Shown: positions 35,800 to 36,684 of the stretch, piece after piece | How positions within the stretch are numbered: the first letter of the stretch is position 1 | Layout: each line of letters begins with the position of its first letter | NCBI RefSeq assembly: GCF_001677475.2 | Contig: NZ_CP015229.1 | DNA length: 64,000 nt | Origin: Escherichia coli | Lineage (GTDB): Bacteria; Pseudomonadota; Gammaproteobacteria; Enterobacterales; Enterobacteriaceae | Reading direction: 5' to 3' (one strand) | The notes under the pieces: generated by a model | Databases searched by the model: none | What the model was told of the DNA's origin: nothing | The model's input: the letters and a program-made list of their open reading frames with translations, nothing else | Made by a program: the position numbers and the translations under genes

Positions 35800-35876
35800 C
35801 GCGCCCTTAGCTCAGTTGGATAGAGCAACGACCTTCTAAGTCGTGGGCCGCAGGTTCGAATCCTGCAGGGCGCGCC
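35800..35876 (+). tRNA. argU: tRNA-Arg (anticodon UCU)
   Basis: gcgcccttagctcagttggatagagcaacgaccttctaagtcgtgggccgcaggttcgaatcctgcagggcgcgcca; cloverleaf with TCT anticodon; promoter TTGACT...TATAAT upstream. Confidence 0.97.
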
Positions 35877-35922
35877 ATTTCTTCTTCATTTATGCCCGTC
35901 TTATCCGTTTCCGCTTTGCCCT

Positions 35923-36684
35923 TCACCACATCACTTTTTGTCGCTGTTTGGCGAGATAATTCAACGGTGTCAGGCCGTAAAACGCCTTAAAAACAGAGAT
36001 AAAGTACGACGTGCTGCTATAGCCACATAATTGCGCTACCTGAGTGATATTTTTGTTATCCATCAATAACATCTGTACGGCGTAACGCATACGACACTCT
36101 GTGACAATCTGGCTATAGCTGGTATTTTCGTTTTTTAATTTCTTTTTGAGCAGGCTGGGGCTTAAACATAGCGAACTGGCGACAATTCGCAGATTCCAGT
36201 AATGCTGAATATCGCTTTGAATAATGCGGCAGACGCTGTCGCGGACGCTGCTGCGTAAGATATACATCAGTAGGGCAATAAACCGCGATTGCTCAAGAAA
36301 GTTAGACAATACGGTAAAAAGCAATGCGCGCGTCAACTCCGCTTCGCAGGGTTTGCTGGGTTGCTGCTTGCTGTGGTTGGCGGCTAGCCGGAACACTTCC
36401 GGTGTACGGCTATGACAAGCGATAACCGGGGTAGCCAGCCGCGACCAGGGCTTTACGCAGGTTAAGTTCTTATTTAAAAACAACAGATAATCGTTGATGA
36501 TGTTGCGGTTGATGTGGGTGATTAATACGTGATTTAACGTTGAGAGTTCAATGACGTTATTGTTGCACGCGAAGGCGGCCAGGTAATTTTTCGGAAGGGT
36601 AAACGTGGCATGGTTATTGACGCTTACCTCTACCTCTTTTTCGGTCAGGATCACCACGCAAGGTTCACTGCTGCTCAATTGCAT
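35923..36684 (-). CDS. envY: AraC-family transcriptional regulator
   Basis: 253-aa ORF with C-terminal AraC HTH; stop lies 46 bp from the argU 3' end. Confidence 0.88.
   Translation of the reverse strand: MQLSSSEPCVVILTEKEVEVSVNNHATFTLPKNYLAAFACNNNVIELSTLNHVLITHINRNIINDYLLFLNKNLTCVKPWSRLATPVIACHSRTPEVFRLAANHSKQQPSKPCEAELTRALLFTVLSNFLEQSRFIALLMYILRSSVRDSVCRIIQSDIQHYWNLRIVASSLCLSPSLLKKKLKNENTSYSQIVTECRMRYAVQMLLMDNKNITQVAQLCGYSSTSYFISVFKAFYGLTPLNYLAKQRQKVMW

Follow-up and report, generated by a model that had tools for sequence, protein, structure and literature searches.

The window analysed here, a 64,000-nucleotide stretch of Escherichia coli contig NZ_CP015229.1 (RefSeq assembly GCF_001677475.2), carries the tRNA gene argU in the gene order sfmA/C/D/H/F, fimZ, argU, envY, ybcH, nfrA, nfrB, cusS. 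The features of the argU–envY interval and its immediate flanks are as follows (positions are those of the window):

34926–35558, minus strand: fimZ, from the open reading frame (ORF) list, with coordinates after the 633-bp fimZ annotated in strain 19KM1831
35742–35769, plus strand: sigma-70-type promoter-like site upstream of argU, TTGACT-16 nt-TATAAT, by consensus match only (11 of 12 positions)
35801–35877, plus strand: argU, tRNA-Arg(UCU), intact, by ARAGORN (anticodon TCT) and Rfam RF00005
35833–35879, no strand: single 47-bp att core, the attB crossover region; the identical 47-mer lies at both ends of DLP12 in K-12
35878–35922, no strand: 45-bp spacer from the argU 3' end to the envY stop codon, the native attB right arm by K-12 alignment
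35923–36684, minus strand: envY, AraC-family regulator, intact (253-aa ORF), first gene of the right flank

The tRNA-Arg(TCT) gene at 35801–35877 on the plus strand is the only tRNA gene that ARAGORN reports in the 64-kb window; the Rfam tRNA model RF00005 covers 35801–35874 at 72.1 bits, and alignment of this argU with that of K-12 reveals zero differences. A preliminary description of this DNA had observed that argU runs almost directly into envY, which holds, with the tRNA gene at 35801–35877 and the envY stop at 35923. It had put the 3' end of argU at 35876, one base short of the ARAGORN coordinate of 35877; its distance of 46 was right, the spacer itself being 45 bp. A simple scan found no terminator in this spacer, and Tandem Repeats Finder returned no repeat at a score of 80 or above. 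The 253-aa EnvY encoded on the right shows no amino-acid difference from WP_001177464.1, the EnvY annotated in strain 19KM1831.

As a K-12 reference we fetched the 28-kb stretch 562000–590000 of MG1655 with its annotation and compared it with the window by blastn. The annotated cryptic prophage DLP12 (564755–586056) begins within argU and holds intD, decayed lambdoid genes, appY and ompT, and the window is matched only by positions 1–2802 and 24055–28001 of the fetched stretch. The longest sequence common to the attL and attR regions of K-12 is the 47-mer CTTCTAAGTCGTGGGCCGCAGGTTCGAATCCTGCAGGGCGCGCCATT, whose two copies lie at positions 2756 and 24058 of that stretch, 21,302 bp apart; the window has a single copy, extending from the anticodon loop of argU through its 3' end and 2 nt beyond. 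What is absent from the window relative to MG1655 is exactly 21,302 bp, which is the whole repeat-bounded DLP12 segment, including intD, appY and ompT. Indeed, in a three-way alignment the window reads as the left arm of K-12 attL, the core and the right arm of K-12 attR, joined scarlessly with zero inserted or deleted bases, and within the spacer (35878–35922) a single substitution, at 35885, separates it from the K-12 sequence to the right of attR. The DLP12 att sites of K-12 MG1655 (attL 564755, attR 586057) thus have the same 47-bp core and the same neighboring genes as the site in the window, with a left arm (collinear by blastn and ending in fimZ, the last gene of the left flank) that is 98.3% identical and a right arm that is 98.1% identical; however, K-12 is occupied, two cores enclosing intD through appY and ompT, whereas the window has one core and nothing between. 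The alignment to MG1655 around argU had been proposed as a check in the preliminary description, and it returned a clean junction from which DLP12 is missing entire.

Searches of the window for other phage DNA agree with this alignment. No DLP12 DNA was detected in the window, which the K-12 region matches by blastn at the two flanks alone; tblastn with IntD and OmpT gave no match below E = 4 in the 64-kb window, and the sole match to AppY there is its AraC-family paralogue EnvY. No second att core was found in the 64-kb window with up to three mismatches tolerated, and neither tblastn and blastn nor the ORF list shows an integrase, an excisionase or any further phage gene beside the site. Both absences asserted at the outset, that of any integrase, phage gene or att duplicate and that of DLP12, appY and ompT at the argU locus, are hence borne out by these searches of the window. 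Leftover remnants of an element at argU were considered and rejected, as the flanks, the EnvY paralogue match and the single core were everything found.

The phage side of the site could be identified as well. The argU core is present in 17 records of the phage collection, and several phages carry variant cores (98% core copies), but phages Kati (PP925833) and 2G7b (NC_049954, genus Nesevirus) each carry the exact 47-bp core, once, beside an integrase. In 2G7b an annotated ompT borders the core on one side and a 1164-bp integrase on the other (ompT–attP–integrase region, 1628–4227), and in Kati a 750-bp "transcriptional regulator" of the size of appY, a 954-bp gene, the core and a 1164-bp integrase follow one another in that order. 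Leftward of the core, 3 kb of Kati is 99.6% identical to the appY–ompT–attR arm of K-12, and rightward of it 1.3 kb is 99.3% identical to K-12 attL–intD. When the four arms of Kati and 2G7b are compared with the inner arms of K-12 DLP12, the ompT-side arm of 2G7b is 96.7% identical and the other three are 99.3–99.7% identical. The attP of these phages is the partner of the site in the window, flanked by the ompT side (with the appY-sized regulator, in Kati) and the integrase, whereas the attB in the window is flanked by fimZ and envY. With the window, Kati/2G7b and K-12 compared, attB, attP and attL plus attR are all in hand, which are the four sites expected from integration. In the Kati record (PP925833, 625–4224) the attP core is labelled "tRNA-Pro" and ompT is labelled "hypothetical protein".

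We propose that a tyrosine integrase would recombine attP with argU across the 47-bp stretch that is identical in attP and in the 3' part of the tRNA gene. This integration would rebuild an intact argU at attL and leave a partial copy of the tRNA at attR beside envY, and the phage would bring appY and ompT with it as cargo adjoining attP, so that the predicted product is argU-int ... appY-ompT-(partial tRNA)-envY, as in K-12. These sequence comparisons show that appY and ompT are phage cargo and that their absence does not reflect separate losses: where no phage is integrated, intD, appY and ompT are missing together. The location of ompT within DLP12 is itself established (Nakata et al. 1993, cited in PMC5723341).

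We are highly confident that the argU–envY interval is the unoccupied attB, in argU, of DLP12-type lambdoid phages, a confidence that attaches to the identity of the site and not to its history; none of the results contradicts this identity. Everything testable that would be expected of such an attB was found, namely an intact tRNA gene, one core, matching arms and no phage gene; the exact attB alignment, the single core and the lack of phage DNA likewise support the "unoccupied argU integration site" of the preliminary description. We infer that the site in the window is recombination-competent, and it is a predicted attB through which living phages that carry ompT could lysogenize the strain. 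The finding is already known, a textbook presence/absence polymorphism, and it holds no new biology. Its use to an annotator is that the strain has no DLP12-type prophage at argU and hence lacks appY and ompT at the chromosomal position that they have in K-12, which bears on OmpT-dependent phenotypes (protease activity on recombinant proteins, antimicrobial peptides). The window, Kati/2G7b and K-12 together also form a clean illustration of integration at a tRNA gene.

The same state is widespread in the species. To count empty sites, a 501-bp query across the argU–envY junction was compared with 5426 complete RefSeq E. coli genomes and contiguous coverage was scored; to count occupied sites, a 701-bp query across the K-12 argU–intD junction was compared with the same 5426 genomes. 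The contiguous argU–envY junction is present in 2531 of the 5426 complete genomes (about 47%) and the argU–intD junction is covered in 2745 of the 5426, the two alleles together accounting for 97% of the set. The empty site is one of two common alleles of this locus in E. coli and is not unusual. Within the complete E. coli set, 3095 genomes have ompT somewhere, from which inclusion–exclusion yields a minimum of 200 genomes that have ompT at another locus while their argU site is empty; such a site is therefore no proof of an ompT-negative strain. A third configuration between argU and ybcH is found in genomes including E. coli S88 and APEC 102026, which match an envY–nfrB query only from position 968, without envY. 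Among other records, JAIJJM010000316.1, a 3.6-kb contig labelled "MAG: Collinsella sp.", has a first 1.6 kb that is 97% identical to K-12 envY–attR–ompT and represents an occupied site; it probably stems from contaminating E. coli DNA that was assigned to a Collinsella MAG during binning.

The absence of ompT may also arise in another way. E. coli B and BL21(DE3) are ompT-negative by genotype, and BL21(DE3) resembles the window in having no ompT at the argU locus; unlike the window, it has kept argU–intD, and only one place in it matches the argU-core query. On our reading of that single match, BL21(DE3) would have no attR copy, which would make its loss of ompT an internal imprecise deletion and not an empty attB.

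The strain itself stands apart from the complete genomes. Over 12 kb in each flank (window 11000–23000 and 44000–56000) the best identity to any of the 5426 complete genomes is ~98.0%, which indicates a deep-branching lineage absent from the complete genomes, perhaps, at a guess, a cryptic clade or a branch of similar depth, and the draft assemblies GCA_043014985.2 and GCA_019142445.1 match the window at 99.995–100%. Over 21 kb that span the junction, GCA_019142445.1 agrees with the window at 99.995% identity and GCA_036438655.1 at 99.67%, and GCA_043014985.2 is 100% identical over 23 kb of the right side. Among the contigs that encode the exact SfmH of the window, all 24 of the 24 read show fimZ and then envY directly. 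Across 22 compared genes, all of them intact, third codon positions hold 503 of the 604 differences (83%), which indicates that the divergence is natural; a synthetic or perturbed sequence was rejected as its cause on the same count.

Divergence is not uniform across the locus. The segment envY–ybcH–nfrA–nfrB (about 7.2 kb) is 99.4–99.6% identical to strain 19KM1831, and the sequence on both sides of it is about 97–98% identical. The left limit of this tract, taken from the change in mismatch density, falls within 35657–35894, an interval that includes attB, and the right limit falls within 42786–43124, between the genes nfrB and cusS, where an Rhs/ISAs1 island is present in some genomes. An envY–nfrB query is matched at 99% identity or more by 274 of 5319 genomes; K-12, which is without the tract haplotype, is 98.1% identical there. 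The tract, which starts at the att site, looks from its sequence like an inter-lineage recombination segment bounded by two insertion hotspots, and it indicates that this neighborhood has been exchanged between lineages.

Several explanations of the empty site have to be weighed against one another. One is that the junction is an artefact, a prophage between the 47-bp repeats having been collapsed out of the assembly. Nothing speaks for this beyond its formal possibility, and we regard it as negligible: the junction recurs in GCA_019142445.1 and GCA_036438655.1, two independent assemblies whose contigs at this point are 385 and 477 kb long, it is present in 2531 complete genomes, and a 47-bp repeat does not cause the loss of 21 kb of unique sequence. 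An assembly collapse is what the preliminary description had named as able to overturn it, and those independent assemblies leave its conclusion in place. It is likewise very improbable that the lack of ompT was selected for here on the model of Shigella and enteroinvasive E. coli (EIEC), in which IcsA is spared when the protease is missing and the bacteria can spread from cell to cell. Shigella and EIEC do resemble the window in that, in the text of PMC5723341 that cites Nakata et al. (1993), ompT is gone together with the whole of DLP12, either never hosted or excised; however, that absence is read as pathoadaptive, whereas the window has intact genes, no insertion sequence (IS) was seen in it and nothing suggests a pathotype. 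It does not have the style of a Shigella genome: all 22 genes compared are intact, the contigs are long, no IS was seen among the ORFs of at least 150 aa, the majority of these ORFs having a match among annotated E. coli core genes, and hence neither genome decay nor IS expansion of the Shigella/EIEC type was found in these genes and ORFs of the 64-kb window. Moreover, the site is empty in 47% of E. coli, whatever their kind, so no special selection is needed to account for it. There remain the two histories that the preliminary description had offered, that the strain never acquired an element at argU or lost one cleanly. This is the correct pair of alternatives, and the clean junction fits both, because integrase-mediated excision regenerates attB exactly and never-occupied and cleanly lost sites look alike in sequence. 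We lean modestly towards the view that the lineage inherited the site empty, in its ancestral arrangement, rather than losing a prophage; this lean draws on the E. albertii type strain, which has no prophage at the site, on the lineage relatives, all of which read as empty, and on an argU without a phage-type variant core. In the type strain the interval from envY to argU is 725 bp and contains no prophage, which makes the empty arrangement ancestral for the locus. E. albertii NBRC 107761 and the window share convergent, prophage-free argU and envY neighbors; they differ in the spacer, which is 45 bp in the window and in E. albertii a 725-bp AT-rich segment (5452–6176) with an orphan 160-aa ORF (5597–6079) that matches nothing in NCBIfam and is homologous neither to the window nor to K-12. 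DNA is thus taken up on the 3' side of argU even where no integrase lies close by. EnvY homologues in Citrobacter, Salmonella and Kosakonia (58–63% identity) do not lie beside a tRNA-Arg gene in those checked and are therefore uninformative on the argU site. The alternative history, in which an ancestor held a DLP12-type prophage and lost it by precise integrase/excisionase excision to leave a scarless attB, we consider unlikely. The junction is exactly as excision would leave it, and live relatives with an intact int exist; DLP12 excision in K-12 is reported to be inducible, with the prophage excising on induction by Hha (PMC4632033), which makes precise loss mechanistically possible, and the same question, never hosted or excised, is stated to be unresolved for Shigella and EIEC (PMC5723341). 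There is, however, no positive trace of excision, argU showing no core variant of the kind that several phages carry; all lineage relatives read are empty, and with the E. albertii site prophage-free no loss need be invoked.

The low-divergence tract raises a further explanation, that homologous recombination brought in the empty allele, an occupied argU stretch having been replaced, through crossovers in the flanks, by DNA of a donor whose site was empty. In its favor, identity to 19KM1831 rises to 99.4–99.6% within the tract from about 97–98% outside it, the left limit contains attB, and the closest carriers of the haplotype that were examined are all empty at argU. The direction of transfer can be read the other way, however, as the 274 of 5319 genomes at 99% or more could be the recipients instead; crossovers would naturally fall in the 236-bp invariant stretch that surrounds the tRNA, with or without a prophage at the site, so the tract is suggestive only and is not evidence that a prophage was removed; and because its right limit falls at a second variable spot (nfrB/cusS), the tract may be bounded by insertions in the donor. 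A tract that ends at the site and does not span it does not by itself remove a prophage. On balance we hold this explanation to be improbable, more so than excision, and we grant the same low credence to its broader form, in which the "empty" site is not naive but the left border of a segment exchanged between this deep-branching lineage and mainstream E. coli, and its prophage-free, ompT-free state was set or reset by homologous replacement of the islet between the two hotspots or by phage-mediated transfer of att-adjacent DNA. Inheritance of an empty site thus remains the history that we favor for this lineage.

Two loci elsewhere in the window are also of note. At 538–1251 the rhsD element of K-12 (7.3 kb between ybbP and selU) is absent and a segment of ~706 bp stands in its place, flanked by short direct repeats and with no blastn match to the K-12 ybbP–selU interval. 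This segment contains an Rfam AgrB match (1100–1190, 50.3 bits) and a hydrophobic 27-aa ORF on the minus strand (755–838, MKTFLDKVLIVLKALIALLELIRQFIE), and it may be a dinQ/agrB-like type I toxin–antitoxin locus. Farther along, a tandem hokE/sok pair occupies 57258–57726 and 57761–58230, its two copies being about 97% alike with an Rfam sok match in each, and the same duplication is annotated in strain 19KM1831.
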